Positions 19,615 through 58,573 of a DNA stretch of 64,000 nt are shown here, in pieces. Position 1 is the first letter of the stretch. Each line of letters begins with the position of its first letter. This stretch comes from an uncultured Myxococcales bacterium (GTDB lineage: Bacteria > Myxococcota_A > Polyangia > Fen-1088), in NCBI GenBank assembly GCA_964540815.1, contig CAZIOH010000003.1:1685-65684 (forward strand), written 5' to 3'. The notes under the pieces are model-generated. The model was given only the letters and a program-made list of their open reading frames with translations. It did not search any database and was not told where the DNA came from. Position numbers and translations under genes: made by a program.

Positions 19615-22239
19615 TCACGGGCAGGTGAGGCGTGCCAGGTGCGGCGTCGCGAGCTGTAGGTCTCGACCGTCGCCGAGCTGGCCGGTCGCATCGCTGCCCC
19701 AGCACACCACCGTGCCCTCCGCGCGCAGGCTGCAGGTGTGCGTGCCTCCGGCTGCCACCGCCAGGCTGTCCGTCACGACCGGAGCCGCCGGGGCGCGCAG
19801 CTGCCCGTCGCGGGTCCCATCGCCGAGCTGGCCGAGCCGGTTGTCGCCCCAGCAGTAGACGCTCCCCGGTAGCCGAGGATCGTGGGTGGCGGCGGAATCG
19901 ACCCGCGCGCAGGTGTGCAGGCCTCCGGCGGTCACGTCGACCGCATCGGCCACCCCCATCACCGGGACCGGTACCGCGCGCGCGAGGGCGGCGCCCCACC
20001 CGAGCTGGCCGCTCGTCCCCTGGCCCCAGCACCACACGGCGCCGGCGGAGGTGGCCGCGCAGGTGTGATCGTCGCCTGCCGCGATGGCGGTCGCGTGGTC
20101 GAGCCCGGCGACCGCCACCGGCGTCGGGCTGCTGGCCATGCGACCATCCCCGAGCTGCCCGTCGGTTCCACGCCCCCAGCACTTGACCTGCCCGCTGGCG
20201 AGCAGCACGCAGCTGTGTGCCGCCCCGAGAGCCCAGGCAACGACGTCGGCCCCCACGATGCCGGCGATGCCCACCAGCGCGGTCGGGGTGGTGCGCTTGT
20301 CGGTGGTGCCGTCGCCGAGCTGCCCCGACTGGTTGTCCCCCCAGCACACGGCGCCCGCGGCGCCCGCGGCGCAGGTGTGGGCACCGCCAGCCCCGATGCG
20401 GGTCGCCGCGATGACCCCGAGGGCCCGCACCGGCGAGACGTAGTCGACGGGCATGGCCGCGCCGAGCTGCCCCGAGCTCCCGCGGCCCCAGCACCAGACC
20501 GCGCCGTCGGCTGTGGCGCCATCGCCCCCGGTCCTGGCGCAGGTGTGGAGCGCCCCCGCGACCAGCTCCCGCGCATCGAGCGCCACCTTCAGTGGAGCAG
20601 CAATCGCTCGATCGGTGCGTGTGCCGTCGCCGAGCTGCCCGGCCTGGTTCGAGCCCCAGCACAGGACCGAGGCGGGTCCGGACGAAGGAGATGACGCGGC
20701 TCCGGACGCGCTCGCCGCGCCGTCGACCGAGCGCCGCGCGCAGGTGTGGTTGCTCCCGGCGCTGAGCGCGAGGATGCCGGACAGGACGCCCGACTGGCCG
20801 AGCGCGGGCGTCGGGACATCGCGGGTCAGCCGTGCCCCCGTGCCGAGCTGCCCGGCCCGATCGTCGCCCCAGCACCACACCGAGCCGTCGCGGCGGCGCG
20901 CGCAGGAGAACGAGCTGCCGGTGGCGACTGCCTCCACGTCGGGGAGCCCGGTGACGGGCACCGGCACACCGATGTTGGTTGTCGTGCCGTCGCCGAGCTG
21001 TCCGCTCTGGTTCGCTCCCCAGCACCAGGCCGTCCCGTCCTCGAGACGGGCGCAGGTGTGGTGTCCGGCGGCCGCGAGATCGGAGACGGCGGCCAGGACG
21101 GGGACCAGACCCGCGCTCGGCCGGACCGGCAGATCGTTGCCGTCCCCGAGCTCGCCGAGGAGGTTGGTTCCCCAGCAACTCACCTGGCCGCCGGCGAGCA
21201 GGCAGGTGTGCCCCACCCCGGCGGCCAGGGTCGTGATGGGGCCGGCCGCGCCGAGCGCGCCAGGCGCACCGAGAATGACCGCGGGGGCGGGGGTGGAGCG
21301 GTCGACGAAGGTCCCGTCGCCGAGCTCGCCCTGCGCGTTCGAGCCCCAGCACATCACGGCGCCGGCAGTGGTCGCGGCGCACGCGTGTCGATCGGAGGCC
21401 GCGAGCAAGCGCACGTCGTGCAGCACGGCCGCGTCGATGGCCACCGGGGTGAGCGCGTCCGCGCCTCCGGCGGCTCCGGCTCCGCCTCCGAGCTGGCCAG
21501 TCGCGTTGCTGCCCCAGCAGGTGACGCTGCCGTCGGCGCGCAGGGCGCACGAGAACGCCCCGCCGGCCGCGACCGCGACGGCGTCATCCAGAGCGACGAC
21601 CGGGGCCGGCTGGGCGCGGGATACCGTGGTTCCATCGCCGAGCTGCCCGGTGGTATTCGCTCCCCAGCACCACACGCTGCCGTCGACCAGCAGCGCGCAG
21701 CTGTGCGCATCCCCGAGCGCGACGTCGAGGGCTCGCACCGGGAGGCCTGGGACGGGGACCATGGTCGAGCGGGCCAACCCCGCGTCGTCGCCGAGCTGGC
21801 CGCTCGCCCCTTCGCCCCAGCAGGCGACGCCGCCGTCCTGGCGTACCACACAGGCGTGGTCCCCTCCGGCGCGGAGGTGAACCACCGGGTTGGTGGGGCA
21901 AGCCTCGTCGACGCAGCGGTTGGCGAGCTCCGCGGGGGCGTGCGCGCGATAGCGGCGGCCGGAGTCGCAGGAGCCATCGGGCAGGCTACAGGCGCCGGTC
22001 GACTCGCACACCCCATCGCCGCACTGGCGGTCCTCCTCGCAGCGAAAGATCCCGGGCCCGAGACAGCCCGACATCGTCGAGGTCGCCATCAGCATCGTCA
22101 GCACCACGGACATGCTGAACGCGGCGACCAGGACCACGCGTGGCCAGTTTCGCAGGCAACGACGAAGCCAAGGTCGAAGCCAAGCTCGAAGGCAACGGCG
22201 CGTCGACGCGGAGGTCGCGCTCGAGGCCGGGAGGACCAT
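19615..22239 (-). CDS. RCC1-repeat lipoprotein (14 repeats, probably two 7-bladed propellers)
   Basis: 14 copies of WG.N..G(Q/E)LG.G-like motif with HTC/HSC/FSC; TMSGC lipobox-like; ATG 22239 overlaps the upstream stop (TGATG). Confidence 0.9.
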   Translation of the reverse strand: MVLPASSATSASTRRCLRAWLRPWLRRCLRNWPRVVLVAAFSMSVVLTMLMATSTMSGCLGPGIFRCEEDRQCGDGVCESTGACSLPDGSCDSGRRYRAHAPAELANRCVDEACPTNPVVHLRAGGDHACVVRQDGGVACWGEGASGQLGDDAGLARSTMVPVPGLPVRALDVALGDAHSCALLVDGSVWCWGANTTGQLGDGTTVSRAQPAPVVALDDAVAVAAGGAFSCALRADGSVTCWGSNATGQLGGGAGAAGGADALTPVAIDAAVLHDVRLLAASDRHACAATTAGAVMCWGSNAQGELGDGTFVDRSTPAPAVILGAPGALGAAGPITTLAAGVGHTCLLAGGQVSCWGTNLLGELGDGNDLPVRPSAGLVPVLAAVSDLAAAGHHTCARLEDGTAWCWGANQSGQLGDGTTTNIGVPVPVTGLPDVEAVATGSSFSCARRRDGSVWCWGDDRAGQLGTGARLTRDVPTPALGQSGVLSGILALSAGSNHTCARRSVDGAASASGAASSPSSGPASVLCWGSNQAGQLGDGTRTDRAIAAPLKVALDARELVAGALHTCARTGGDGATADGAVWCWGRGSSGQLGAAMPVDYVSPVRALGVIAATRIGAGGAHTCAAGAAGAVCWGDNQSGQLGDGTTDKRTTPTALVGIAGIVGADVVAWALGAAHSCVLLASGQVKCWGRGTDGQLGDGRMASSPTPVAVAGLDHATAIAAGDDHTCAATSAGAVWCWGQGTSGQLGWGAALARAVPVPVMGVADAVDVTAGGLHTCARVDSAATHDPRLPGSVYCWGDNRLGQLGDGTRDGQLRAPAAPVVTDSLAVAAGGTHTCSLRAEGTVVCWGSDATGQLGDGRDLQLATPHLARLTCP

Positions 22240-23273
22240 CAATAGGACCCCATCACGCTCAACCACCGACCATCGAACAGCAGGCGAGCATCGAGGGCCG
22301 CGGTGGGGCGCCCCGCGGTTGGCCCGTGCGCACCACGGAGCAGCCACCAGGCTCGCACGCCACCCACCACCCCGAGCACCGCGGCGGTCGAGAGCGCGCC
22401 GATGGCCACGGCTCGGCGCGCGCCGGCCGTCTGCCAGGCGCGCGCGAAGTCGTCGTACGAGGTGTTCGTGCTCGCCGTCTCTGCGGGCTGCGCCCGGTTC
22501 GAGGCCACCCATGCGCCGACGCCCGTCCCGAGCGCCACCAGTGAGAGGGAGAGTGGAGCCACGGTCCACGGATCGTGGGCGAGTCGAGCCAGCGCCGATC
22601 GCTGGGCGGTGGGCGGAGTCCGCTCGGTGAGCGCCCCCGAGACCGAGGCCGAGGCCGGGCTTCGATCTTGGGGTGGATGCCCCGGGTCGGACGGGCCGTG
22701 GGGAGTCGGGGGACCGGAGGCCCTTGTCGTCGCGCCCGGCGGGGCGGAGGACGCGGCGACCACGCTGGCGGAGGCGGCTCTGGTCGACGCCGCCGCCGCG
22801 CACCGGTCGAGCCCGAGCTGCGTCGCCTGCACCTGCAGCGGGGGCGGCCGGGTGGCGAGGAACCGGTGATACAGCTCGAGCGCCCGCGGACAGTCTCCGT
22901 CGAGGCGGAACGCCTGCGCCTCCGCGAACAAGAACTCCGGGCGTGGGTCGAGGGCAAAGGCCCCCTCGAGCTCCGCGATCGCGCGATGGAAGTCCCGCGC
23001 GGCATAGTGGCCGAGCCCGCGCACGTACGCCGCCTCGGCCTCGGCCTCGGTGGAGGGGGAGGGCTCGCGCTCGTCCACGGGCGCCGTCCCTCCCGACGGA
23101 GACGCCACGGCGGCCCTCGAGACTGCGCAGCCCACCGCGATCCCCAACGCGACGAGGACGATCCGTCGGAACCCCGAGCCCCGGTCGTGAGTCGGGGGCC
23201 ACCCACCCCCGGACGACCGCCGTCGTTCCGGGAGGTGAAGAGCGCAGGCGCGTGGAAGCTGGGCGGAGCTCAC
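22239..23273 (-). CDS. Secreted TPR protein with C-terminal hydrophobic helices
   Basis: AEAAYVRGLGHYAARDFHRAIAELEGAFALDP.PEFLFAEAQAFR; GTGA overlap with the kinase stop; start tentative. Confidence 0.75.
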   Translation of the reverse strand: MSSAQLPRACALHLPERRRSSGGGWPPTHDRGSGFRRIVLVALGIAVGCAVSRAAVASPSGGTAPVDEREPSPSTEAEAEAAYVRGLGHYAARDFHRAIAELEGAFALDPRPEFLFAEAQAFRLDGDCPRALELYHRFLATRPPPLQVQATQLGLDRCAAAASTRAASASVVAASSAPPGATTRASGPPTPHGPSDPGHPPQDRSPASASVSGALTERTPPTAQRSALARLAHDPWTVAPLSLSLVALGTGVGAWVASNRAQPAETASTNTSYDDFARAWQTAGARRAVAIGALSTAAVLGVVGGVRAWWLLRGAHGPTAGRPTAALDARLLFDGRWLSVMGSY

Positions 23274-25276
23274 GGTGGAACGGGGGAATCCGGATCCCAC
23301 ACCTTGACCTCGGGTCGTGGCGACGCCGAGATCTCGGCGGCCCGCGCGGCTCCCCCCCCGAGCGGTCCTGGAGCGCGACCGCCGGCGTCCTCCTCGGTGG
23401 CCACGGCGGCGGTCGGGGACCGACGAAGAGCCACCGGCGCCCCGTCGGGAACCGAGCGCGGCGACGGGGCCCTGCGCGTGGGTGAGGACGGCCGCCGCTC
23501 GCGCGCCATCCCGCTGCTGCGCGAGGTGGCGTCTTGTTCGAGCGCTTCGGCGGACGACGGCGTGACCCGTGCGCCTCGGGGCTCAGGGCCTCCCGCATGA
23601 ACGCCGGGGTCGACTTCCGATCGAAGCGCCGGCTCGGGGGCTGGCTCGCCTGGCCCTCCAGTCCCAGGCGCGCCGAGCCCGGCCGCCGGCACCGTCCGGG
23701 GCTGCCATCCGGGCTGCATCTCCGGCGACGAGGCGTGCGACGCCGAAATCCGCCCGGGAGCACGCCCCGCCCCTCGGACCGCGCCGCCCCGCGAACGCGC
23801 GATCGCCAGGCCTGCCAGGCCCGCCGCCACCGCGGCCATGCCGACCAGCCCCAGCGCGCCGGCCGTCGCGACCGAATGCGAGCGCTTGACCGGCACCGAC
23901 CCGATCGATCGCCTCGGCGGATCGCGGACCGCGCGCGTCCCTTGCGTCCACCGCGGCGCGTTCGCCACGGCCGCCGTGCCGGCGGCCCCGTCGGTGAGGG
24001 TGCGATCCCCTGGGTCCGTCGCCGGCTCGCCCGGGTGAGGGCCGGCGGCGCCTGCGCTCACCCATCCCGGGGCCGCCACCCCCTCCTCGACCGGAATGGA
24101 AGGCGGTGGCCGCGCCGGCGACGCCACCGCCTGATCGCGCAGGTGCTCCGCCAGAGATCGACCACTTCGCATGGCGGCGCGCCATTCAGAGACCCGCGCA
24201 CCGAACAGGGACTCGAGGTAGGTCGCGGTGTCGAGCGCCGAGCTCGACAGCTGCTCGGCCCGGGCGAGGCGCTCGAGCTCGACCTGCACCGCCTGCGCCG
24301 TCGGAGGGCGCTCGCCGCGCGACCGAGCCAGGCTCCGCACGATCACTTCGACCAGCGGCGCCGGCACCCGCGTCCGTGCCCCCTCGGGGACGCGCACTTC
24401 GCCCCGCACGATGCGAGACATGAGCTCGTAGTCGCTGTCGGCCGCGAAGGCCGGCTGGCCGAACGCCATCTCGAAGAGCAACGTGCCGAGCGCGAACACG
24501 TCACTGCGTCGGTCGAGCGCGTGCCCGAAGCACTGCTCGGGCGACATGTGCGCGAGCTTGCCCTTGAGCTGACCCTGGACCGTCAGGCTCCGCTGCTGGC
24601 GCCACTTGGCCACGCCAAAGTCGGTGAGCTTGACCACGCCGTCAAAGCTGACCAGCACGTTCGACGGTGAGACGTCGCGGTGGACCACCTCGAGCGGGTC
24701 CCCGCTCTCCGCGCGCAGCTCGTGGGCATGGTGGAGCCCGGCGGCCACCGCGGCACCGATCGTCACGACCATCGCGGTCGGGAGCGGGCCCTCCGCCTCG
24801 TTCAGCACGGCCCGCAGATCGCGACCATGCACGTACTCCATGATGAAGTACGGAATCTGTCCGCCGAGCTCGCCAGCGTCCACGCCGACCGGCGCGGCGT
24901 CCGCCACGCCCTCGGCCGCGAGAGCGGCGCGCGCCCCCCCGGAGGCGTCCTCCATCTCGCAGACGTCGTAGACCTGCGGGATGTGTGGATGCGACATGCG
25001 CGCCATCAGGCGAGCCTCGTCGAGGAACATCTGGCGCAGCTGTGGATCGAGTGCGTACTGGGGCAGGAGGCGCTTGATGGCGACGACCTTGCGAAAGTCG
25101 CCGGGCCGGGTGGCCTCGGCCAGGATCAGCTCGGCCATGCCTCCCACCGCCAGCCGGCGGAGCGCGTGGTAGCGACCAAGATGCCGTCGCGCTCCGGGCC
25201 ATCCGGGCGCTGGCTCGAAATCAGCAATGGCCACATCCGATCGTAGCCCCGATCGGTCCCATCGCTCAAGGCGCAT
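23270..25276 (-). CDS. Membrane-anchored Ser/Thr protein kinase
   Basis: LAVGGMAEL, VAIKRL, HRDVSPSNVL, DFGVAK, GKLAHMSPEQ, DVFALG; TM helix; KVWDPDSPVPP end. Start set at ATG 25276. Confidence 0.93.
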   Translation of the reverse strand: MRLERWDRSGLRSDVAIADFEPAPGWPGARRHLGRYHALRRLAVGGMAELILAEATRPGDFRKVVAIKRLLPQYALDPQLRQMFLDEARLMARMSHPHIPQVYDVCEMEDASGGARAALAAEGVADAAPVGVDAGELGGQIPYFIMEYVHGRDLRAVLNEAEGPLPTAMVVTIGAAVAAGLHHAHELRAESGDPLEVVHRDVSPSNVLVSFDGVVKLTDFGVAKWRQQRSLTVQGQLKGKLAHMSPEQCFGHALDRRSDVFALGTLLFEMAFGQPAFAADSDYELMSRIVRGEVRVPEGARTRVPAPLVEVIVRSLARSRGERPPTAQAVQVELERLARAEQLSSSALDTATYLESLFGARVSEWRAAMRSGRSLAEHLRDQAVASPARPPPSIPVEEGVAAPGWVSAGAAGPHPGEPATDPGDRTLTDGAAGTAAVANAPRWTQGTRAVRDPPRRSIGSVPVKRSHSVATAGALGLVGMAAVAAGLAGLAIARSRGGAVRGAGRAPGRISASHASSPEMQPGWQPRTVPAAGLGAPGTGGPGEPAPEPALRSEVDPGVHAGGPEPRGARVTPSSAEALEQDATSRSSGMARERRPSSPTRRAPSPRSVPDGAPVALRRSPTAAVATEEDAGGRAPGPLGGGAARAAEISASPRPEVKVWDPDSPVPP

Positions 25277-25400
25277 TCGTGAGACCGAGGCCAAATCCGC
25301 GCCCGCGGGCCGCGCGCGGGCATCGCCGTGTGGGCATCGCCAGGTGGGCGCGCCCCTTACATGACATGCACCTTGCGCGATCCGGTTCCAGAGGCCCGCG

Positions 25401-25472
25401 GTTGCGCAACACCTCGCACGCCCCCGTCCAAGAGGAGGTTTCCTCGGGGCGGCGGTTGCGCAACCGCCGCCC
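25401..25472. promoter_or_regulatory. Two GTTGCGCAAC palindromes, the second inside a perfect 26-bp palindrome; candidate enhancer/operator sites
   Basis: GTTGCGCAAC at 25401-25410 and 25455-25464 (54 bp apart); GGGCGGCGGTTGC/GCAACCGCCGCCC at 25447-25472. Confidence 0.6.
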
Positions 25473-25628
25473 TTCAGCCGGGTCGGCGAGACGCCGATTC
25501 TTCCCTCGCCAGATCTTTCCGACGCGGACCGACGAAAATTGGCCCCGGAACGGGCGGGCCAGCGCAAGCTCATCGCCCGGTTCGACCATCCCGAGCGTGA
25601 GGCGCCACCCAGAAGCCCTGGGCACGGG

Positions 25629-25671: not shown

Positions 25672-27924
25672 ATGACCAAACTCATCGCGGACCTCAGGCT
25701 ATCCACCCCGTCGACGCGGCGATCGCGCCGAGCGCTGGCACCGAGGGTCGCGGCCCTCTCCCTCTTGGGCTCGTTCGGCTGCTCGGCCAACCAGAGCTCG
25801 GCCCCCGCGCTGCCCGCCGATGTTCGCGCGATCATCTTCCTGCAGCGGGTGCCGCAGAAGGCCACTGGCAACGTCTTCGACTACACCAGCTTCGAGCCGG
25901 GCGGACGCATCGCGCAGCTCGAGCCGCCTTCTCCCGATGGGAAGCTCACGGTGCTCACCTCGGATCCGATGTGGGATGGCGCGGACTTCATGTCGTGGGA
26001 CCTGTCGTTCGACGCCAAGCAGATCGCCTTCTCGGCACGGACCCAGGACTCGACCCGCTATCACATCTACACGATGTCCCTCGGTGGGACGGCGTCCGCC
26101 CCTCCGACCGTGACGCAGGTGACCGAGGGCGACAACGACTACGTCTTTCCCGTCTACTTGCCCGGCCAGCGGCTCATGTTCACCACCAACAAGAACGTGG
26201 AGGCGGACACGCCCCAGTTCCAGGACGAGTACGAGCGCGCCATCACCGCCCAGGTCGGGACCATCAACCTCGATGGCTCGAACGAGGTGCTCGGCCCGCG
26301 CAATGTGTCGCACCGGGTGGCGCCCGCGCTGCTCCCCGACGGACACGTCCTTTACACCGAGTGGCGGCACCTCGGCCCGGTCAACGACGGGCACCTGCGC
26401 CTCATGAACGGGGACATGACCACCGTACGCGAGGCCTTCGGCAGCGAGGCCGGCGCCGTCGGGGGGACCAACAGCTACCTGCGCGGACGTTACGTGGCGC
26501 AGACCCCCACGGGGGTCGAGGTGGTGGCCGTCGGAACATCCCGCGACCGCACGCTGCAGGCCGGCAAGCTCCTGCTCATCAACCTGGCCAAGAGCGAGGC
26601 GACCTCCAGCTTCAAGGACATGACCCCGCTCGTCCCCGGCGATCGCTCGCGCTCCTTCAGCGGCGTCGGGCGCTACTACGACGCCGAGCCGGTGGGCGCC
26701 GTCGCCGCGCGCACCTTCCTCGTGTCCTGGGCGGATGGCCCGGTGCAGTCCGAGGTGGTCGCCACCGCCGGCAACGCCAACTTCGGGATCTACGTGTTCG
26801 AGTTCGATCCCACGGCCACGGGGGCCTCGAGCGGTGGGGTTCGCCACCCGCTCTACGACGATCCGGCCTACTGGGACGTGCAGGCCCGCCCCGTGCGGCC
26901 GCGCGCCGAGCCTCCCGTGACCTCGTCCCCCATCGATGGCGATGGCTTCGTGCTGAGCGCCATCAACGTCTACGACACCAGCCTGCCCGATCAGGTGAAC
27001 ATTCCCCCCGGCGAGGCGGTGAAGGTCCGGCTCATCGAGGGCTTCTCCGGCGAGGAGGGGCCGCGCCTGTTCGGCACCACCGAGTTCGACGGGCAGTCGC
27101 TCTACGGCGAGGTGCCGGTCGCCCCGGACGGCTCGTTCTCGGCGCGCGTTCCGGCCAACGTGCCGGTGCACCAGCAGGTGATCGACAAGTTCGGGATCGC
27201 GCTGGCCGACGAGCCGGTGTGGATCAGCGGGCGGGCCGGCGAGGCCCGCACCTGCGGGGGCTGCCACGAGGACCGCGCCAAGAGCCCGACCGTCACCCCC
27301 GGGCAGATCGACGCGATCGTGCAGGGGGCGGTGGACCTCAACGTGCCCCGGGCCCAGAGGGTCTCGATGGACTTCAGCCCCGCTCAGGTGCGCGGCGTCC
27401 CCTGGGACAAGGCCATTCAGCCCATCCTCGATGCCAAGTGCGTGGCCTGCCACGACGGCGATCCGGCCAAGCCCGGCAATCCCAGCTTCACGGTCACGGA
27501 CATGACCACCGGCACCGCGCAGACCTTCGTGTTCGACCTGACGGGCAAGCCGCTGCCGGTGACGGTGGGCGAGAAGATGACCGGGGCCTTCACGGCCTCT
27601 TACATCTCGGTGATGGGCATCGGCGAGCTGCTCGGCGAGGACGCCGTGTCCATCAGCGGGACGCCCTTCGCCTTCGCCAAGGGGGGCGCCGCCCGCGACT
27701 CGACCATCATCCAGACGCTGAATCCGCCCCAGCGCGACCCGGTGGTGGACACCACCGTGCGCCGCTGGCCAGGCGCGGCGGTGCACCCGGTGGACGTGGG
27801 CGGCACCGAGCTCACCCCGGACGAGTACTACCTGCTCGGCCTCGGCATCGACATGGGCGGGCAGTTCTACTCCCGCGAGAACAAGGACGAAGCCATCGCC
27901 TACAACCAGTCGGGTGCGCCATGA
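25672..27924 (+). CDS. Hydrazine synthase alpha-like (HzsA-related) lipoprotein: TolB/PD40-like propeller, HZS-alpha middle domain, two CXXCH
   Basis: Lipobox LGSFGC; SFDAKQIAFSA, PALLPDGHVLYTEW; FSARVPANVP.HQQVIDKFG.A...W...RAGEARTCGGCHE; AIQPILDAKCVACHDG. Confidence 0.75.
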   Translation: MTKLIADLRLSTPSTRRSRRALAPRVAALSLLGSFGCSANQSSAPALPADVRAIIFLQRVPQKATGNVFDYTSFEPGGRIAQLEPPSPDGKLTVLTSDPMWDGADFMSWDLSFDAKQIAFSARTQDSTRYHIYTMSLGGTASAPPTVTQVTEGDNDYVFPVYLPGQRLMFTTNKNVEADTPQFQDEYERAITAQVGTINLDGSNEVLGPRNVSHRVAPALLPDGHVLYTEWRHLGPVNDGHLRLMNGDMTTVREAFGSEAGAVGGTNSYLRGRYVAQTPTGVEVVAVGTSRDRTLQAGKLLLINLAKSEATSSFKDMTPLVPGDRSRSFSGVGRYYDAEPVGAVAARTFLVSWADGPVQSEVVATAGNANFGIYVFEFDPTATGASSGGVRHPLYDDPAYWDVQARPVRPRAEPPVTSSPIDGDGFVLSAINVYDTSLPDQVNIPPGEAVKVRLIEGFSGEEGPRLFGTTEFDGQSLYGEVPVAPDGSFSARVPANVPVHQQVIDKFGIALADEPVWISGRAGEARTCGGCHEDRAKSPTVTPGQIDAIVQGAVDLNVPRAQRVSMDFSPAQVRGVPWDKAIQPILDAKCVACHDGDPAKPGNPSFTVTDMTTGTAQTFVFDLTGKPLPVTVGEKMTGAFTASYISVMGIGELLGEDAVSISGTPFAFAKGGAARDSTIIQTLNPPQRDPVVDTTVRRWPGAAVHPVDVGGTELTPDEYYLLGLGIDMGGQFYSRENKDEAIAYNQSGAP

Positions 27925-28886
27925 ACCGGGGCGCCACCAGCCAGCCGTCGTCTACCCTCAGAAGCACCCCCGGAGGCACCCGCATGTTGAAGTCCGCGAT
28001 ACCGTCCGCGCCCCGTCCCCTCCCGAGCCGGCTCACCGGCACCGTCACCGTCGCCTGTTGGGCCGCGATGGTGGCAGGCGCCGTGGCGATCACCCCTCGC
28101 CCGGCGCGCGCCGGACAGGGGAGCAGCCCGCAAGCCGTCGCCTCCGCCATCGCCTCGGGCTCCCCGGACGCCATCAAGGCCGAGCTCGAGCGCGCCGAGC
28201 ACCTGGTCTGTGCCGCCTGCGTGGACTACGTGCTGCCGCTCATCGACAACGCCGATGCCGGCATCCGCGAGGTCGCGGGGTGGTGGCTGATCCGGCGTGG
28301 TGCCAGTCGCCCGGTGTTCCGAGACATGCTCACGCGTCTCGGTGAGCCGAGCTCCATTCGCGCCCGCAATGCCGCGGACATCCTCGGGGCGTTCGCGCTG
28401 CCGCAGGCCATCCCGGCGCTCGGCGCGGCGCTGTCCAACCCGGTCTTCACCCCCGAGGCGCGGGCGGCCATGGCGGCGGCCCTCGGGAAGATTCACCGTC
28501 CAGAGGCGGCCGCGCCGCTCGGCGCCGCCCTGGCGGACGGCGTGCCCGAGGTCCGGGCCGCGGCGCTGGCGGCCCTGCGCCACGTCGACGGGTTCCGGGA
28601 TGGGCAGGTGGCGGTCCCGCTGCTGACCGACGCGGATCCGGAGGTGCGTGTCCAGGCCATCTTCACGGTCGCCGAACGCGGAATCACCGCGGCGGCCATG
28701 CCGCTCGTCGGCTTGCTGCAGAGCGATCCCAGCGCCAGCGTGCGCAGGCGGGCAGCCTGGGCGCTGGGCCAGATCCACGCGTCCGCGGCGATCGCGGCCG
28801 GGCCGCTCGGCCAGGCCGCGAGCTCCGACGCCTCGCCCTTCGTCCGCTCGCTGGCGCGGGCCTCACTGGCGGCGCTGTCGCGTTGA
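27921..28886 (+). CDS. Exported HEAT-repeat protein
   Basis: Signal ending PARA; repeats such as LADGVPEVRAAALAAL, LTDADPEVRVQAIFTV, LQSDPSASVRRRAAWALG; CAAC motif; 4-bp overlaps on both sides. Confidence 0.85.
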   Translation: MNRGATSQPSSTLRSTPGGTRMLKSAIPSAPRPLPSRLTGTVTVACWAAMVAGAVAITPRPARAGQGSSPQAVASAIASGSPDAIKAELERAEHLVCAACVDYVLPLIDNADAGIREVAGWWLIRRGASRPVFRDMLTRLGEPSSIRARNAADILGAFALPQAIPALGAALSNPVFTPEARAAMAAALGKIHRPEAAAPLGAALADGVPEVRAAALAALRHVDGFRDGQVAVPLLTDADPEVRVQAIFTVAERGITAAAMPLVGLLQSDPSASVRRRAAWALGQIHASAAIAAGPLGQAASSDASPFVRSLARASLAALSR

Positions 28887-31800
28887 CCGGCCGAGGGCGG
28901 ACAGCGGCGGCGCGCGGGTGGTCTTGGCCCGTGCGCGCGAGGTGGTGGGAGACCGGCGCGCTCGACGTATGCGCGAGCACCGCCGTCGCCGTCGCCGTCG
29001 CCATGGGCGTTGGCGCGGCGGGCTGCGCGCTGCCGAAGCCCGCGGAGCAGCACTACTACGACCAGCACATTCAGCCGTTCCTCAACAGCTTCTGCGTCGG
29101 GAACACCTCGCCCTGCCACGCGATCGATCCGGGCACCGGGCTGGCGCTCGGCAACCTCGATCTGTCGTCCTTCGAGGCGGTCCAGAAGCGCCCGGACGTC
29201 CTGCGCACCTACGGCAGCTATCCGATGCCGCTCCTGCTCATGAAGGCGGTTCCGGAGTCGTCGGTGCAGATCCCCTACCGCGGGAGGTTCCTTCAAAGCG
29301 AGATCCGTCACGCCGGAGGCAAGAGCCTGTCGACCAGCTCGGACGCCTTCGCCGAGCTGTCGCGGTGGCTGGCCAACGGCGCCAACCGGGACGGCGTCGC
29401 GCCGACCGGAAGCAACCGGCAGGGGCAAGGAGCCTGCAACACCAGCATCCCGGGCGATCGCAACACCAGCGTGGTCGACACGTCGAGCACCGCCTACCAG
29501 CTCTTCACCGCCAACGTGGCCCCGATGCTGAAGGCGTCGTGCACCTTCGCCACCTGCCACAGCTCGCCTCAGTCGGACTTCTACCTGACCTGCGGCACGG
29601 ACGACGCCCAGCAGCGCTTCAACTTCCTGCAGGCAGCCGGGTTCGTCGCCCCCAGGCCCGATCCGACCGCGGCCGCCGGCACCGGCGTCGAGCAGAGCGA
29701 GATCCTGCTGCGGCCCCTGTCCCCCGCCTCGGGTGGGGTCAGTCACACCGGCGGCGTCTTCTTCGCGTCGCGCAGCGACGACACCTGGAAGAGGTGGAGG
29801 GACTGGGCGGTGGCGGTGCAGGCCGATCCCCCCGAGCAGTTCGTCCGCTCGGCGGGCCAGCAGTTCTTCGAGGCGAACGTGATGCCGAAGCTCCTGCAAC
29901 GTGGGTGCGCCCTCGAGGGGTGTCACAGCCCGAACGGCTTCAACGACTATCGCCTGCGCCCGGGCGGCCAGGGCTTCTTTGCCCCGACGGCTCTGCGTCG
30001 CAACTACGAGACCACCGTCAACGAGTTCATGGCCGTCGACAGCGTGGACGTCACGCAGTCGCGTGCGGTCAAGAAGACCCTCTTTGCGGCCAGCGGGGGC
30101 ATTCCCCACCGTGGCGGCCCGTTGCTCGAGGGGACGGCCGACACCTCGTCGGCGGCGGCCTGCCCGGCCACCTACGATCCCGCCACCGCCACCGCTTTTT
30201 GCACCTTCGTCGAGTGGCACCGCCTCGAGCGCGTCGACCGAGCCTCCAGCGTCTCGCCCATGGGCGCGGCGGCGGCGGGGGCGGCGGCGGGCGGGCAGAG
30301 CCTCACGCTCGCGTTCGTGGCGCGCCCACCCGATCCGGACAACCTGCTCGAGTTCGACACCTATCGCCCGGGGGCGGATCTCCGGCTGGCGGACGCGGCG
30401 CTCGATGCCATGGGCCGGGTCACCGCGGTGACCAATTCACGCAGCGCCCTCGCGGGCTGCGCAGGGCTCGACGCCGGGGGTGGCGGGCTCGACGTGCGCG
30501 GCCCCGACTGGAGCTACGACGCGAGCCAGCTGGTCTTTGCGGCCCGCACGGCCGCGGCCTCCGGGCTCGATCTGTGGGTGCTGGACGTGACCGCGGGTGG
30601 CGTGCCCGGGGCCTGCCGGCGTCTGACCAGCGACGATGGGCGGATGCTGACCTTCGTGCGCGTGCACAACTTCGATCCGATGTTCGCGCCGGATGGAACC
30701 ATCGTGTTCGCCTCGACCCGGGCCGGGACCCTCACCCCGAAGACCTTCCTGCCGAACGCGGACCTCTTTCGCACGGGACCGGCGGCGGACTTCGGAAACG
30801 TCCAGCAGATGACCTACCTGCTCGGGTCGGAGCTGTCACCGGCCATGATGCAGGACGGGCGCATCTCGTTCACCGCCGAGAAGGCTTCGCCCGACTTTTA
30901 CCAGCTGTCAGGGCGCCGGATGAACTGGGATCTCTCCGACTACCATCCGCTGCTCGCCCAGCGCGCCCAGTCGACCACCACCTTCGATACCACGCTGTAC
31001 CCGTCGGTGGGGTATGCGCAGGCCACCGAGATCCGCGAGGGGCTGGACCGCAACTTCCTGGTCATCCTCTCCGACGTCGGGGCCAAGGGCGGTGGCGGGA
31101 CCCTCGCGACCTTCAACCGGTCGATCGGGCCCTTCGAGGCCGACCGCACCGAGAAGACGTTTCTGCGCTCGCTGCACATCGTGGACAGCCAGGCCACCGG
31201 GCGATCGAGCACGGTGGGTGCGTACCGCTCCCCGACGTCGTTGCCGAACGGGGAGATCCTGGCCTCGTACGCCGCCAACGTGCACGACACCCTGGCCGAC
31301 GTGCCGACCTACGCGCTGGTGGCGATGAGCATCGGCCAAGGGGCCGACGACGCCAGCGGCGATGCCGCGCGGCGCGTGCTGCTCGGCAGCCCGACCCAGT
31401 CCTACGTGGAGGCCACCCTCGGGTACAAGCGCTCGGCCACCGCGCTCTTCCACAACATCCCGCAGCTGGTGTTCGGTGGTCACGACATGGGGAACGACTA
31501 TGCGGTCATGCACTTCCCCGATCTCCCGATGCTCGCCACCCTGCTCGGCGACAACCTCCGCCACGGACGCAACGTCGCGCGGTTCGACGCGGCCACGGCC
31601 CTCAAGATCTACGAGGAGCGTCCGCCACCCGCGCCGAACCCGCCCGGGCTCCAGGGGTCACAGAACGTGTACGTGGATCGGATCTCGCTCGGCAGCGTGC
31701 CGCTCGCGCCCGATCACTCGGTCAAGGTCTACGTGCCGGCCCGCAAGCCGCTGGTCCTCGAGCTGGTGGACGGCGATGGGAAGCCGGTCCTGACCATGGG

Positions 31801-31990
31801 CGAGGAGCACCAGGTCTCCCCCGGCGAGTACATCACGCCGGGCGTCCCGCGCCGGCTCTTCAACGGGGTCTGCGGCGGCTGTCACGGCAGCATCAGCGGC
31901 AACGAGCTCGACGTCGCGGTCACCGTCGACGCGCTCACCGGCGCCTCGGTGAGCAGCTCCCGCGACCTCGAGCCCCAGGCGCTGAGGTGA
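28883..31990 (+). CDS. Second HzsA-related lipoprotein with CX6CH, two CX4CH and one CXXCH motif plus PD40 propeller
   Basis: Lipobox GAAGC; CVGNTSPCH, CTFATCH, CALEGCH, CGGCH; HNFDPMFAPDGTIVFASTR, SPAMMQDGRISFT; VKVYVPARKPLVLELVDGDG middle domain. Start may be downstream of 28883. Confidence 0.7.
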   Translation: MTGRGRTAAARGWSWPVRARWWETGALDVCASTAVAVAVAMGVGAAGCALPKPAEQHYYDQHIQPFLNSFCVGNTSPCHAIDPGTGLALGNLDLSSFEAVQKRPDVLRTYGSYPMPLLLMKAVPESSVQIPYRGRFLQSEIRHAGGKSLSTSSDAFAELSRWLANGANRDGVAPTGSNRQGQGACNTSIPGDRNTSVVDTSSTAYQLFTANVAPMLKASCTFATCHSSPQSDFYLTCGTDDAQQRFNFLQAAGFVAPRPDPTAAAGTGVEQSEILLRPLSPASGGVSHTGGVFFASRSDDTWKRWRDWAVAVQADPPEQFVRSAGQQFFEANVMPKLLQRGCALEGCHSPNGFNDYRLRPGGQGFFAPTALRRNYETTVNEFMAVDSVDVTQSRAVKKTLFAASGGIPHRGGPLLEGTADTSSAAACPATYDPATATAFCTFVEWHRLERVDRASSVSPMGAAAAGAAAGGQSLTLAFVARPPDPDNLLEFDTYRPGADLRLADAALDAMGRVTAVTNSRSALAGCAGLDAGGGGLDVRGPDWSYDASQLVFAARTAAASGLDLWVLDVTAGGVPGACRRLTSDDGRMLTFVRVHNFDPMFAPDGTIVFASTRAGTLTPKTFLPNADLFRTGPAADFGNVQQMTYLLGSELSPAMMQDGRISFTAEKASPDFYQLSGRRMNWDLSDYHPLLAQRAQSTTTFDTTLYPSVGYAQATEIREGLDRNFLVILSDVGAKGGGGTLATFNRSIGPFEADRTEKTFLRSLHIVDSQATGRSSTVGAYRSPTSLPNGEILASYAANVHDTLADVPTYALVAMSIGQGADDASGDAARRVLLGSPTQSYVEATLGYKRSATALFHNIPQLVFGGHDMGNDYAVMHFPDLPMLATLLGDNLRHGRNVARFDAATALKIYEERPPPAPNPPGLQGSQNVYVDRISLGSVPLAPDHSVKVYVPARKPLVLELVDGDGKPVLTMGEEHQVSPGEYITPGVPRRLFNGVCGGCHGSISGNELDVAVTVDALTGASVSSSRDLEPQALR

Positions 31991-32017: not shown

Positions 32018-33262
32018 TCAGAAGCGCAGCGAGAGGGCGAGCTGGCCGATGTAGGCGCGACGGCGATCGGCGTTCGGCGCCAGGGCGGAGGCGAGCTCGT
32101 AGAAGAGGCCCTCGAACTTGGCGGACAGCTCGATCTCGTTGAAGAGGGTCCTGGCATCCCCTTCAGGCAGGCGCAGGTAGGCCACCTTGCCCCCGAGCAG
32201 GGTGTTCTGCATGGTGGACAGCTCGCGGTCCCCGGTCCAGTACTGCCCGACTGGCCCCGTCAGGCGGTAGCCCTCGGCGTCCCGGTAGAACACCGCCCCC
32301 ACCTGCGAGTGGACCCGGGCCAGGGCCGACAGGATGAGGAAGCGCGTGAGGTACTCGTGAAAGGCGAGCTCGGCCGAGTACGCCTGCAGGGCCCAGGTGT
32401 CACGGTAGACCCGCGCCATGCCCTGCAGGGACGCGTGCAGGGCGGGAACGGCGTAGGCGGCGCGGCCGAAGACCGCGAAGCGCTGGCGCAAGCCGGGCAA
32501 GCTCTCCTGGGGTGTCCGCCCGGCGCTGCCGAGCTCGACCCGCCGGTATGGGTTCGACTGGAAGCCATCCAGGATCTGCACGGTCCCTCCACCTTGCAAG
32601 AGGAGGCGCGGCGTGACGGCCCAGGTGAGCGAGGGCTCGAGCGAGTCGATGTCGAGGTGGCGGGTGACGATCTGGGGATCGCCTTGAAAGCAATGGTCCG
32701 ACTTCACCAGGGCCAGGCGCTCCAGCGGATTGCCCACGGCGGCTGCGTTGTTCCGATCGCACACCCGATCGAAGTTGTGCGTGAAGGACAGCCCCAGCGT
32801 GAAGGCGTGCTCGGCAAAGTCGCTGCGGGTCGCCACGGTCAGCGAATGGGACTGGTAGTCATGCTCCCACCCGTAGCTGTACCCCACGGTCACGTCGGCG
32901 ACCGGGCGGGTGTAGGTCACGCTCCCGCGCACCTGCTGCCGCGTGTCCGAGAACTTGGTCGCCGACGAGACCGCGTCGACCCCGAAGATGACCGGGGTCG
33001 CCCCGGTGACGATGTCCACCGAGTAGCCAGCCGCCAGCTTCACCGACGCGCCGAGCATCGTGTCGACGTCGGTCTGCGGATGGATCACGGTCACCCCGTC
33101 GTTGGTGGACGACGGCTCCCGGAACACCGTGAGGTGCTGCGCCGCCGAGGTCTCCCCCGCCTGCGCTTCCCCCGAGCCGCCCCCCAGGCCGAGCGCCAAG
33201 CCCATCGACACGATCAGCAGCCTCGCCCGGAGCCGCCCCTTCCCGCGCCGGATCAGTTGCAT
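32018..33262 (-). CDS. DUF3570-like outer-membrane protein
   Basis: Signal peptide; VDIVTGATP...DAVSSAT, E.DYQS, GFQSNPYRRV, P.E.LP..RQR, YRDTW, FYRD..Y...DREL motifs; terminal F. Confidence 0.75.
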   Translation of the reverse strand: MQLIRRGKGRLRARLLIVSMGLALGLGGGSGEAQAGETSAAQHLTVFREPSSTNDGVTVIHPQTDVDTMLGASVKLAAGYSVDIVTGATPVIFGVDAVSSATKFSDTRQQVRGSVTYTRPVADVTVGYSYGWEHDYQSHSLTVATRSDFAEHAFTLGLSFTHNFDRVCDRNNAAAVGNPLERLALVKSDHCFQGDPQIVTRHLDIDSLEPSLTWAVTPRLLLQGGGTVQILDGFQSNPYRRVELGSAGRTPQESLPGLRQRFAVFGRAAYAVPALHASLQGMARVYRDTWALQAYSAELAFHEYLTRFLILSALARVHSQVGAVFYRDAEGYRLTGPVGQYWTGDRELSTMQNTLLGGKVAYLRLPEGDARTLFNEIELSAKFEGLFYELASALAPNADRRRAYIGQLALSLRF

Positions 33263-33618
33263 CCGCAGCCGCCTCCGGAGGTGCCCGTGCCGCCGATGGC
33301 CCCCTCCCGGTTCGCGAGCACGTGCTCGTCGGCGGCGCGCTCCTGCGGATCGGCGTCGAAGCGCATGATGCGATCGGCGAGCAGCTCCCGCTGGTGGGCC
33401 TTGACCCCCACATGACCGCATCCGCTGGCGAGCACCGCCGACAGTGCCGCCGCCGCCACCAACCACGGGCGGAAGGCGCGGACATCCGCGCGCAGCCGCC
33501 CGCGAAGACCCTCGCGAACGCGCGCACGCGGCTCAGAAGACGATGGCGAGCGCACCGGTGTACTCCTCCATGCGTTGGGTGTGGTTCGGATCGAAGACCA
33601 CGTAGTGCCGCACGTCAC
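33253..33618 (-). CDS. DUF4266-like small lipoprotein
   Basis: LASGC lipobox; VKAHQRELLADRIM...REGAIGGTGTSGGGCGCN terminus. True start is downstream of 33618 (about 33460-33530). Confidence 0.85.
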   Translation of the reverse strand: MTCGTTWSSIRTTPNAWRSTPVRSPSSSEPRARVREGLRGRLRADVRAFRPWLVAAAALSAVLASGCGHVGVKAHQRELLADRIMRFDADPQERAADEHVLANREGAIGGTGTSGGGCGCN

Positions 33619-34372
33619 CCCGCAACGTCACGCGCTTCTTGAGGGCCACCAGCAGCCCTCCGCCCACGTTGACCACCGCGTAGGTGCCGGTGCGGATGGC
33701 GAACTGGTCGGCCTTCTTGCGACTGGCGGCCCCACCGGCCGCCGCGCCGAGAAAGGGGGTCACGGGCGCGCTCGGAAACACGAACACGTTCGGCCCGCCG
33801 CCGAAGTAGAAGACGTCGAGCTCGTTGCCCACGGTCTCGCCCGCGAAGCCCTCCAGCGACAGGTGCGGCTCGAACAGGAACGCCGGGCGGAAGATGAAGG
33901 CCGAATCTCCCCCGAGGAGTCCGGCCGAGAAGGACAGCCCGAACCGTCCCTCGAGCAGCGGCGATGGCGAGAACACCGCCTCCGAGAGGCGGTGCCACAG
34001 CGAGGGCCCACGGTGGGCCTCCGCCGTGTCGAGGTCGAGCGGGAACACCTCGTCCCCGAGCAACCAACCCCCGGTTCCATCCGGCAGGCGCACCCGGAAC
34101 CAGCTGGCGGACGTCGCGCGCTCGACCACCGGCAGCACCTCGCCCCGCGTCGCCACGTAGACCACCCGGAACGCCGCGCCTGGACCGGTGTGAACGGCGG
34201 CCTGCTCGGCGAGCACGCGCACCAGCGCCTCGTCGTCGGCGCGGGCCTCCGATGGCCAGACGGCCGCTGCGCACAGACAGGCGGCGATCACCAGGATCAG
34301 CCCCGGCGGCCGCGGCCCACCCGGCCGCCGCCGCCCGGGCATCGGCGAGCTCCGGCCCGCACCGGCGCTCAC
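33533..34372 (-). CDS. SH3-like domain plus outer-membrane beta-barrel protein
   Basis: VHTGPGAAFRVV....RGE.L.V.....SWFRVRLPDGTGGW (SH3b-like); alternating beta strands ending YTGALAIVF; GTGA overlap. Confidence 0.75.
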   Translation of the reverse strand: MSAGAGRSSPMPGRRRPGGPRPPGLILVIAACLCAAAVWPSEARADDEALVRVLAEQAAVHTGPGAAFRVVYVATRGEVLPVVERATSASWFRVRLPDGTGGWLLGDEVFPLDLDTAEAHRGPSLWHRLSEAVFSPSPLLEGRFGLSFSAGLLGGDSAFIFRPAFLFEPHLSLEGFAGETVGNELDVFYFGGGPNVFVFPSAPVTPFLGAAAGGAASRKKADQFAIRTGTYAVVNVGGGLLVALKKRVTLRGDVRHYVVFDPNHTQRMEEYTGALAIVF

Positions 34373-34824
34373 GGCCCCGCCACCCACTGCGTGAGCAACC
34401 CGAGCTCGGGTCCGTTCGGCTCGAACAGCTTGTCGCCGCCGTGCTGGCTGAGACCGGATGGCTTGGTGTAAAGCTCGCTCCCGGCCACGTCCGAGCAGTT
34501 CATCTGGTTCGCCGCCGACTGGTAGAGGGCATCCCAGTCCGAGCCCGCCACCAGCGGGAACGTGGGCGTGCTGGTCGAGGTGGGCGCCACGATGTGCAGC
34601 GGCCGGTTGGCGCTGGCGTGGCAGCTGGCGTCCCCGCAGGTCTTGCCCGAATAGCTCTGCGCCAGGTAGCTGGGCCAGATCTGCGCGACGAAGAACTGCG
34701 CGGAAGGTCGGCAGGCGTTGACGTCGGCCGGCGGCGCGCCGACGTCAACCGTGCTGCACGCGCCGAGGCCGAGCCCGAGCGCGACCAGCGCCGCGCGCAC
34801 CGCCAGGCGGCGGCTCGCGATCAA
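34369..34824 (-). CDS. Small lipoprotein with CX4CH motif (putative cytochrome c-like)
   Basis: TTG 34824 overlaps upstream stop; lipobox LGLGAC; QFFVAQIWPSYL...TCGDASCH...KPSGLSQHGGDKLF...LTQW. Confidence 0.7.
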   Translation of the reverse strand: MIASRRLAVRAALVALGLGLGACSTVDVGAPPADVNACRPSAQFFVAQIWPSYLAQSYSGKTCGDASCHASANRPLHIVAPTSTSTPTFPLVAGSDWDALYQSAANQMNCSDVAGSELYTKPSGLSQHGGDKLFEPNGPELGLLTQWVAGP

Positions 34825-35459
34825 AACGCGTACCTCATCCAGGCGGTGGTCACCAGCAGCTGACCACGCCCGAGACCATTCGCCTGCAAGTAGCTGGCGC
34901 GCACCCCGAGCGCGAAGTGCCGGGACAGGGTGTGGTACTCGAGCCCGAGCCCCCCGCCATAGACCGGCGAGGTCCGCTGATCGTTGAGGCTCGCCGTGGC
35001 GAGGACGTTGGTGGACGTGTGGAGCATCCCCCCGTCCGCCGTGACCGAGGCCGCGAAGCTGCGGTGGCGCAGCGACACGCGCAGCGCGCCCGTGAGCTGG
35101 TAGAGCTGCAGGAGCTCCCCGTCCTGGGGAGCCTGGGGAAACTGCGTCGTGTGGGTCGACCCGACGCCCCGCGCCTCGAGCGCCAGCCACCGCGTGAGGT
35201 CGTAGCCCGCGACGAGGCCGAGCCCGAAGCCGGGGCCGAGGTGCGCGTGCAGCGGGCCGAGGGGCAAGACCGCGCCCACCTCCCCCGCCGTGTAGAGCCC
35301 GTAGGCAAACTTGCTCGGATCGGCCAGGACTTGCGGCGTCGGCGCATCGGTGACCTGCGCGCGGGCCACGCGCGGGGCTCCGGGGACGGCCCCGAGCGCC
35401 ATCAGCGCGGCCGCCACCTTCACGACCAGATGCGGGAAGAGAGAACGCCGCGGGCTCAT
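34821..35459 (-). CDS. GltH/CglE/NfsH-like small outer-membrane beta-barrel
   Basis: Signal ending VARA; GLYTAGEVG, GFGLGLVAGYDL..WLALE, GGGLGLEYHTLSRHFALG; terminal F; position after gltG-like gene. Confidence 0.65.
   Translation of the reverse strand: MSPRRSLFPHLVVKVAAALMALGAVPGAPRVARAQVTDAPTPQVLADPSKFAYGLYTAGEVGAVLPLGPLHAHLGPGFGLGLVAGYDLTRWLALEARGVGSTHTTQFPQAPQDGELLQLYQLTGALRVSLRHRSFAASVTADGGMLHTSTNVLATASLNDQRTSPVYGGGLGLEYHTLSRHFALGVRASYLQANGLGRGQLLVTTAWMRYAF

Positions 35460-39580: not shown

Positions 39581-39591
<11 letters not shown>
38407..39591 (-). CDS. GltE/AglT/NfsE-like TPR lipoprotein
   Basis: LVGTGC lipobox; serial TPRs (AYNSLGLIYY, VWNNLGLVAF, ARLNKAVVYL, AYVALGVAAR). Confidence 0.75.
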
Positions 39592-42944
<3,353 letters not shown>

Positions 42945-42961
<17 letters not shown>

Positions 42962-47189: not shown

Positions 47190-47310
47190 CGCATAACCGT
47201 AGTCCCGGCCGCGTGGTCCTGGCAAGGCACGACCCCGGGGTTTCCGCACAAACTCGTCGTGGAGTGGCGTTTTTGGCCCGGATCTTTCGAGTCTTTGCTC
47301 GAAGAGTGCG

Positions 47311-56151: not shown

Positions 56152-56174
56152 CGCGCCGCCGAGAGCTCCACGAG

Positions 56175-57632: not shown

Positions 57633-57654
57633 TTCGAATTGAAGTCTCTCAGGT

Positions 57655-58494: not shown

Positions 58495-58573
58495 GGCTCG
58501 GCAGTTTCAACCGAATGGACCGCCCAGGCAAGACCGAACGACCGAAGTTGCTGTCGCATCTATCCGAGCCGGG

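Follow-up and report, generated by a model that had tools for sequence, protein, structure and literature searches.

To our knowledge, hydrazine synthase (HZS) was long regarded as an enzyme without homologues outside anammox bacteria. Genes resembling hzs were then described in metagenome-assembled genomes (MAGs) of Phycisphaerae and KSB1, and HZS-like proteins were suggested to form a wider enzyme family that may act on other substrates (PMC10732223). A further study defined clades I to IV of HZS-alpha homologues in non-anammox Planctomycetota, Desulfobacterota, Acidobacteriota, and Verrucomicrobiota, with no mention of Myxococcota (Hagglund et al. 2025, PMC12758564), and both studies concluded that the HZS-like genes found beyond anammox bacteria do not encode hydrazine synthases. 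Our literature search returned neither a characterized non-anammox HZS-alpha homologue nor a report from myxobacteria. Here we analyze a 64-kb stretch of DNA (contig CAZIOH010000003.1, referred to as the window; G+C content, ~70%) from a bacterium of the lineage Polyangia (Myxococcota). Three same-strand genes obtained by calling open reading frames (ORFs), namely, p1, p2, and p3 at 25672-31990 (+), encode two predicted HZS-alpha-like lipoproteins with a HEAT-repeat protein between them.

The reference protein for this family is HZS-alpha (kuste2861; PDB entry 5C2V, chain A) of "Candidatus Kuenenia stuttgartiensis." In HZS, heme alphaI is ligated by Tyr591, four positions after the histidine of its binding motif; that histidine, His587, and Cys303 are zinc ligands (bioRxiv 10.1101/2023.01.22.525020; PMC12758564). 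The proteins of clades I to IV and the genes of PMC10732223 resemble the present ones in being distant alpha homologues with a canonical heme pocket from which Tyr591 and Cys303 have been lost. The template modeling (TM) scores to HZS-alpha are similar as well, at 0.66 to 0.67 for the clade proteins (PMC12758564) and 0.6 for p1. The differences are the following. (i) Clades I to IV were selected for adjacency to a fused beta-gamma (CCP-like) homologue and are often accompanied by an FG-GAP/CRTAC1 gene (FG-GAP in clades I to III) (PMC12758564), whereas the trio studied here lacks a beta-gamma partner; a HEAT/CxxC protein and another alpha-like paralogue take its place. (ii) p1 keeps a candidate distal histidine for the second heme, His705, whereas clade I proteins were reported to lack His772 (PMC12758564).

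By a profile search against 1.84 billion representative sequences, HZS-alpha-like proteins form a large superfamily that comprises 11,894 proteins at an E value of ≤0.001 and 2,697 clusters (50% identity) at ≤1e-10. The extra domains of its long members are Malectin, Laminin_G_3, F5/8-type C, and carboxypeptidase-regulatory domains. An earlier annotation of this stretch, made from the sequence alone and referred to below as the original prediction, had emphasized the occurrence of such proteins in a non-anammox organism. The lineage agrees with that description of the host, and the novelty attached to it was overstated, since such homologues have been published (PMC10732223; PMC12758564) and the superfamily is as populous as indicated above. 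The novelty lies in two alpha-like paralogues that are paired with a HEAT protein and have no beta/gamma partner.

The three-gene operon and its distribution

The first gene, p1 (25672-27924, +), encodes 750 amino acids and starts at an ATG (25672) that is preceded by AAGGAG. In longest-ORF calls, p1 and a second large ORF at 28883-31990 lie on either side of the HEAT ORF, which opens at 27921; p1 and p2 then share ATGA, and p2 and p3 share TTGA, with the p3 ORF opening at a TTG (28883). The original prediction had seen the genes coupled by these 4-bp overlaps, which exist only between the longest ORFs. The likely start of p2 (27984-28886, +) is the ATG at 27984, which has GGAGG ~8 nucleotides upstream and aligns with the start methionine of the orthologues. 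For p3 (28931-31990, +), the most plausible start is the GTG at 28931, from which a normal signal peptide results, consisting of an arginine-rich and then a hydrophobic segment followed by AAGC. These starts leave spacers of ~59 nucleotides (p1-p2) and ~45 nucleotides (p2-p3), and the gene calls of related contigs contain intergenic gaps of ~0 to 150 nucleotides. By this predicted layout the operon is tight, and the 4-bp overlaps are a product of longest-ORF calling.

All six Cys..CH motifs that had been counted at this locus were found, two in p1 and four in p3; just three of the six are canonical CXXCH motifs (CGGCH and CVACH in p1 and CGGCH in p3). p1 and p3 are the sole ORFs with C..CH motifs among the coding-like ORFs of the window, that is, those with a third-position GC above 0.8. 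Conservation of the motifs in homologues had been set beforehand as a test on which the prediction could fail. In alignments of 58 (p1), 41 (p2), and 28 to 48 (p3) orthologues, every motif cysteine and histidine was invariant, and the finding was not refuted. Each cytochrome-like module contains one further conserved histidine, which is His705 in p1 (conserved in at least 90%) and His143, His288, and His409 in p3, all three invariant and within H-x-G-G. The p1 and p3 orthologues are 57 to 95% identical and share dozens of invariant polar residues in their propellers, which in p1 include the stretches RNVSHR, EWRHLG, NDGHLR, REAFGxE, TSRDRTLQ, and GRYYDAE. Such purifying selection points to an active site or to tight protein contacts rather than to a passive scaffold.

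A search for p1 homologues returned 656 sequences at an E value of ≤1e-5; the best 120 of these 656 are 57 to 100% identical, all carry PF18582, and those with a taxonomic label are labeled Polyangia. We also scanned genomes with two peptide patterns, so that the taxonomic range obtained is a lower bound, and identified 46 loci in species-representative genomes, all of them Myxococcota MAGs and none from a cultured organism. These belong to Polyangia, with additional Haliangiales and Kofleriaceae at 40 to 44% identity. In every locus that was sufficiently long, p1, the HEAT gene, and p3 are consecutive, down to 40 to 44% identity. Upstream RCC1-TPR-kinase genes and a downstream DUF3570 cluster are often present as well. 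The downstream cluster (DUF3570, DUF4266, SH3, and a small cytochrome) had been considered as a core part of the system and was rejected as such, since it is missing or displaced in ~10 loci that retain the trio. The trio is thus the conserved unit, because the flanking clusters vary. Judged from sequence and synteny, p1-p2-p3 is a real, conserved three-gene operon of soil Polyangia myxobacteria that the original prediction had correctly spotted.

Relationship of p1 and p3 to HZS-alpha

The Pfam HZS_alpha profile (PF18582), proposed earlier as a check, matched p1 with 53.4 bits at residues 466 to 533, above its gathering threshold of 26.6. As a single sequence, p1 aligned to 5C2V chain A in four collinear pieces (E = 1.4e-9), and the p1 family profile aligned collinearly over chain residues 22 to 767 with both heme motifs matched (E = 9.3e-21). 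In a Foldseek search with the AlphaFold2 model of p1 (predicted local distance difference test [pLDDT], 78.7), 5c2v_A was the sole full-length structural match (E = 1.7e-27; TM scores of 0.61/0.60), followed by TolB at 1e-6.

The predicted domain plan of p1 is as follows. (i) The lipobox cysteine, Cys37 (25780-25782, +), follows a hydrophobic signal segment and is invariant in the 58 orthologues, which makes p1 a likely lipoprotein; the lipobox in the window sequence, GSFGC, is atypical, the orthologues of p1 and p3 having mostly A or G at position -1. A Tat signal, considered for the SRRALAP stretch, was dismissed because the twin arginine is not kept in orthologues. (ii) A beta-propeller spans residues ~49 to 420 (25816-26931, +), with all-beta blades in the model and matches to TolB. 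(iii) The HZS_alpha middle domain (27067-27270, +) ends in CGGCH at 27253-27267 (Cys528, Cys531, and His532), which aligns to the CSGCH motif of heme alphaI in 5C2V_A and is invariant in the 58 sequences. (iv) The C-terminal cytochrome c-like domain (27379-27921, +) contains CVACH at 27439-27453 (residue 590), which aligns to the CAMCH motif of heme alphaII and in which Cys590, Cys593, and His594 are invariant, as well as the near-invariant His705, a candidate distal heme ligand.

The third protein, p3, is a predicted lipoprotein of ~1,000 residues that combines a propeller and a middle domain with three N-terminal cytochrome-like modules, R1 to R3. Its lipobox cysteine, Cys48 (29024-29026, +), is invariant in 28 orthologues and conserved in at least 90% of 48, so that p3 is also a likely lipoprotein. 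R1 contains CVGNTSPCH (CX6CH, residue 71; 29093-29119, +), in which Cys71, Cys78, and His79 are invariant together with His143 in RHAGG; the spacing is retained in a Kofleriaceae locus (L048; CGGNTSGCH). R2 contains CTFATCH (CX4CH, residue 220; 29540-29560, +) and R3 CALEGCH (CX4CH, residue 342; 29906-29926, +), both invariant and paired with the invariant His288 (SHTGG) and His409 (PHRGG), respectively. The propeller follows at residues ~471 to 900 (30293-31582, +), and the HZS_alpha-like middle domain at 31676-31897 (+) ends in CGGCH at 31871-31885 (residue 997), with Cys997, Cys1000, and His1001 invariant. Further conserved cysteine pairs of p3 are C185/C237, C427/C440, and C526/C578.

Both large proteins had been described as HZS-alpha-like, with TolB/PD40-like propellers. 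For p1, the first part holds at the Pfam cutoff; p3 scored 22.1 bits, below the cutoff of 26.6, and its relationship to HZS-alpha emerges from profile and fold comparisons, while many p3 orthologues carry PF18582 in precomputed domain lists. A direct phmmer search of p3 against the PDB gave only chance matches, and a family profile was needed to recover 5C2V_A (E = 1.5e-5). The p3 model, although of low confidence (pLDDT, 63.8), retrieved 5c2v_A first in Foldseek (E = 1.1e-13). As to the propellers, that of p3 matched PD40 (24.8 bits) as well as TolB profiles and Foldseek entries and aligned to the propeller of p1; p1 itself had no match to Pfam PD40, and its TolB-like propeller was found by profile search (E ~0.03) and Foldseek only. 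Direct comparison of the p1 and p3 families with hhalign gave a probability of 96.5% (E = 7.4e-10) over 460 columns, from the propeller start to CGGCH. On the strength of the profile, Foldseek, and family-family alignments, p1 is identified as a full-length distant HZS-alpha homologue that keeps the whole three-domain plan, and p3 as its paralogue, in which the C-terminal cytochrome domain is absent and three cytochrome-like modules are located N-terminally instead.

The relationship among these modules is local. R2 and R3 are homologous (hhalign probability, 94.7% over 89 columns), and the motif region of R1 matched the C-terminal domain of p1 (88% over 22 columns). Because hhalign supported these two pairs only, we refer to R1 to R3 as cytochrome-like and not as a proven repeat family. 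Searches of the p3 N-terminal modules against Pfam and NCBIfam assigned no family, and no Pfam cytochrome family reached its cutoff. The pattern F..V.P.L...C(x)nCH ... H.GG is nevertheless common to R1 to R3, the p1 C-terminal domain, the small lipoprotein encoded at 34369-34839 (see below), and the heme alphaII-type domain of HZS-alpha, from which the p3 modules differ in a motif spacing of CX4 or CX6 rather than CX2 and in a weak likeness beyond the motif region. This alphaII-type C-terminal domain presumably resembles the PSCyt-type cytochrome domains of planctomycetes. Two distant relatives (P0355 and P0360) possess a CX4CH motif (CSKPECH and CATPKCH, respectively) exactly at the position of the CXXCH of HZS heme alphaII, which supports the view that CX4CH may serve as a heme motif in an HZS-alpha-like fold.

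The likeness of p1 to HZS-alpha raises the question of whether the trio could be a true hydrazine synthase, or an anammox-like enzyme forming N-N bonds, in a myxobacterium. In overall fold and in the order of its domains, p1 matches kuste2861, with heme motifs at aligned sites (CGGCH/CSGCH and CVACH/CAMCH); of the three domains that make up the HZS-alpha fold, p1 has all, whereas p3 shares the propeller and the middle domain only and has its three CX4-6CH modules at the N terminus in place of a C-terminal cytochrome domain. Beyond this plan, there are several differences. (i) The identity between p1 and kuste2861 is ~17%, and the NCBIfam hydrazine_alpha equivalog (NF052339) gave 61.3 bits for p1 and 19 bits for p3, whereas its cutoff is 800. 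(ii) The tyrosine at His+4 is absent, the sequences being CGGCHEDRA in p1 and CGGCHGSIS in p3 versus CSGCHYGSY in HZS. (iii) Opposite Cys303 (chain position 276), p1 has the invariant Glu259, although the alignment is weak in this stretch (3.8 bits); Cys303 is missing from some true anammox bacteria too (PMC12758564). (iv) As the original prediction had stated, hzsB and hzsC are missing, since no beta/gamma, CCP-like, or other CXXCH coding-like gene was found in the 64-kb window, and within ~10 kb in 48 related loci there was no CXXCH or CCP-like gene besides p1, p3, and the small CX4CH lipoprotein. The neighbors gave no match to CCP-like or FG-GAP domains and comprise the HEAT protein, the second alpha-like paralogue, a Ser/Thr kinase, and DUF3570. 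(v) The present proteins are predicted lipoproteins, two alpha-like paralogues are paired, and the host is a myxobacterium rather than an anammox planctomycete. Because of losses of the Tyr591/Cys303 type, an anammox function has already been dismissed for other homologues (PMC12758564). The missing beta/gamma (CCP-like) partner, the absence of Tyr591 and Cys303 equivalents, and the NCBIfam score of 61 versus 800 thus argue strongly that the trio is not a hydrazine synthase; we strongly disfavor the synthase reading and regard it as hardly credible.

The HEAT protein p2 and the proposed oxidoreductase

The middle gene encodes a predicted Sec-exported HEAT-repeat protein with PBS/alphaRep-type repeats. 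p2 exceeded the gathering thresholds of HEAT_2 (PF13646; 80.1 bits) and HEAT_PBS (PF03130; 28.1 bits) and scored 43.8 bits with HEAT, and its best PDB matches are designed alphaRep/HEAT proteins (E = 1e-25). The CAAC motif noticed earlier is located at residues 97 to 100 (28209-28220), and both cysteines, Cys97 and Cys100, are invariant in the 41 orthologues, whose signal peptides end in AxA before G-[RKQH]-G-[SG]; the description of p2 as a periplasmic HEAT protein with CAAC is thereby borne out. p2 resembles the PBS-lyase-type HEAT proteins (the alphaRep consensus, NblB, and CpcE/F) in its repeats, which match HEAT_2, HEAT_PBS, and alphaRep. It differs from them in being exported, in its invariant N-terminal CxxC, in being encoded between two heme-motif proteins, and in scores for the lyase equivalogs that are far below the cutoffs.

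CcmH is a helical protein with a CxxC motif, and the HEAT-type CpcE/F lyases attach tetrapyrroles to cysteines. p2 might accordingly be a dedicated maturation factor rather than a stoichiometric subunit, one that keeps the CX4CH/CX6CH cysteines reduced or presents them for heme attachment. An invariant CxxC near the mature N terminus of an exported all-helical protein would fit this role, as would the weak similarity to the NblB/CpcE HEAT proteins of NCBIfam, far under the cutoffs, and the position of p2 between two genes with noncanonical heme motifs at every locus. The likeness to lyases is, however, generic HEAT-repeat similarity, with designed alphaRep binders as the top PDB matches; p1 always co-occurs with p2 yet has canonical CXXCH motifs only; and the parallel with CcmH is an analogy. 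We consider this role of p2 unlikely; it concerns p2 only and would be compatible with the function proposed next for the trio.

The reading that we favor, with moderate confidence, is that the trio encodes a membrane-tethered periplasmic multiheme oxidoreductase. After Sec export and lipidation, covalent heme would be attached at all six Cys..CH motifs. Attachment in the periplasm fits, because the lipobox cysteine never varies in p1 and seldom or never does in p3 and because p2 has an AxA signal peptide; the motifs and signal features agree with what defines a c-type cytochrome, namely, CXXCH or a variant of it in an exported protein. The modules with a conserved second histidine (His705 of p1 and His143, His288, and His409 of p3) would form four bis-His electron-relay hemes, while the two middle-domain hemes bound at CGGCH would lie against the propellers as reactive sites. 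Since the tyrosine that ligates heme alphaI in hydrazine synthase is absent, the CGGCH hemes are probably ordinary His-ligated, redox-active hemes. A small soluble substrate would be oxidized or reduced there, with the invariant polar propeller residues forming a pocket or a tight interface, and p2 would hold p1 and p3 together or help in their assembly. We infer the association of the three proteins from the fact that they strictly co-occur, that p1 and p3 are paralogues, and that HEAT repeats are fused to HZS_alpha in one distant relative, a protein of 1,246 residues encoded outside the window (P0368) that has ~500 residues of HEAT repeats before a propeller and an HZS_alpha middle domain (CVGCH).

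Several observations weigh against this oxidoreductase reading. The window ORFs that were scanned included no cytochrome c maturation gene. The model of p3 is of low quality, above all around the motifs, and the comparisons R1-R2, R1-R3, R2-p1 C-terminal domain, and R3-p1 C-terminal domain were not supported by hhalign, so that module homology is local only. CX6CH has no tested precedent as a heme motif in this work. Among the 23 long superfamily members examined, the fusion occurs once, and the HEAT repeats of that protein show neither a CxxC motif nor a specific similarity to p2. Finally, the survey of clades I to IV reports no characterized non-anammox homologue (PMC12758564).

Genomic neighborhood and alternative roles of the trio

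The downstream genes described next are encoded on the opposite strand. At 32018-33480 (-), a DUF3570 protein (82 bits) adjoins a DUF4266-like small lipoprotein that ends in GGGCGCN. The DUF3570 protein contains a flavinylation-type TGAT motif, and 17 of the 18 orthologues compared retain S/TGAT. ApbE has been reported to use DUF3570 as a substrate (PMC8238504), but the window ORFs that we scanned include no gene for ApbE, DsbD, or a thioredoxin-like protein. At 34369-34839 (-), a lipoprotein of ~150 residues is encoded with CGDASCH (CX4CH) and QHGG; neighboring MAGs keep the motif as CSDASCH, CADSACH, and CTDSTCH. It aligned to module R2 of p3 over 91 columns (hhalign E = 5.6e-4, with a probability of only 30%) and had no family in Pfam or NCBIfam. 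This protein possibly represents the p3 cytochrome-like module as a stand-alone copy.

With such neighbors, the trio could be a pure electron conduit, in which noncatalytic multiheme carriers exchange electrons across the periplasm with further redox proteins of the envelope, such as the flavinylated DUF3570 barrel, the DUF4266 CXC lipoprotein, and the small CX4CH lipoprotein. A conserved second histidine at four of the six motifs is typical of relay hemes, the DUF3570/DUF4266 pair with its S/TGAT flavinylation motif and the R2-like small lipoprotein are located directly downstream in many loci, and DUF3570 systems have been proposed as extracytosolic electron-transfer modules (PMC8238504). 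However, the DUF3570 cluster is not adjacent in the ~10 trio-bearing loci mentioned above, and six motifs spread over ~1,750 residues, along with two large, very conserved propellers, would make a poor wire. In the sole characterized relative, moreover, the middle-domain heme is catalytic, as Dietl 2015 is cited in bioRxiv 10.1101/2023.01.22.525020. We regard a conduit without catalysis as possible but on balance rather unlikely, and favor the oxidoreductase described above.

Further downstream, an apparent Glt/Nfs-type envelope gene set occupies 34821-43015 (-). It comprises an OMP_b-brl protein (34821-35459, -), an ORF without an assigned family (35456-36346, -), a GltG-like protein with an AgmX/PglI C-terminal domain (36274-37833, -; 103 bits versus a cutoff of 40), and two TPR proteins (38407-39594 and 39581-43015, -). 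Unassigned downstream ORFs had been considered as redox proteins and proved to be Glt-like (the GltG-like and TPR proteins).

This set bears on another reading, in which p1 and p3 would be non-heme structural envelope proteins, that is, TolB-like propeller lipoproteins whose cysteine pairs form disulfides or metal sites and which act with the neighboring Glt-like envelope or motility genes. In its favor are the TolB-like propellers of both proteins, the GltG-like gene, TPR proteins, and outer-membrane barrels downstream, the extra conserved cysteine pairs of p3, and the noncanonical spacing of three of the six motifs. Yet an invariant histidine follows the second cysteine directly in all six motifs, a heme-ligand signature for which disulfides have no need; the motifs align to the two heme sites of a solved structure; and the Glt-like genes are missing from many trio-bearing loci. 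We consider a purely structural role very improbable and retain the multiheme oxidoreductase as the preferred reading.

The genes at 19615-25573 (-), which diverge from the operon on its upstream side, encode an RCC1-repeat protein, a TPR protein, and a Ser/Thr protein kinase. Most related loci have this set upstream of the trio as well, which may point to a regulatory link or to no more than lineage synteny. Other features of the window are the following. (i) An ORF at 13377-14147 (-) has a MutH endonuclease domain (78 bits) and is located beside an ORF without a family match (12388-13383); such an ORF is not usual in a myxobacterium and may encode a nuclease of the restriction type. (ii) For a soil myxobacterium, the IgGFc_binding domain (117 bits) annotated in the ORF at 47203-49215 (+) is unusual. 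(iii) The region 56001-62000 has a G+C content of 0.63 to 0.65, versus 0.70 to 0.75 elsewhere in the window, and may be foreign or rich in noncoding DNA.

A more specific form of the oxidoreductase reading, which we put forward as speculative and rather improbable in its full extent, is that the trio is a hitherto unrecognized periplasmic heme enzyme of aerobic soil myxobacteria that would reuse the HZS-alpha catalytic scaffold twice per complex to act on small N/O species (e.g., hydroxylamine, NO, or hydrazine), with electrons supplied via the noncanonical CX4CH/CX6CH hemes and the HEAT/CxxC protein as an integral subunit. If true, this would be the first function assigned to the HZS-alpha-like superfamily outside anammox bacteria. 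The operon represents a well-defined, highly conserved, and abundant subfamily, with hundreds of metagenomic orthologues, and offers a clean system for asking what the alpha scaffold does alone, whether CX4CH and CX6CH motifs are loaded with heme, and what a periplasmic HEAT/CxxC protein contributes. In practice, HZS_alpha Pfam matches in soil metagenomes should not be taken as evidence of anammox potential.

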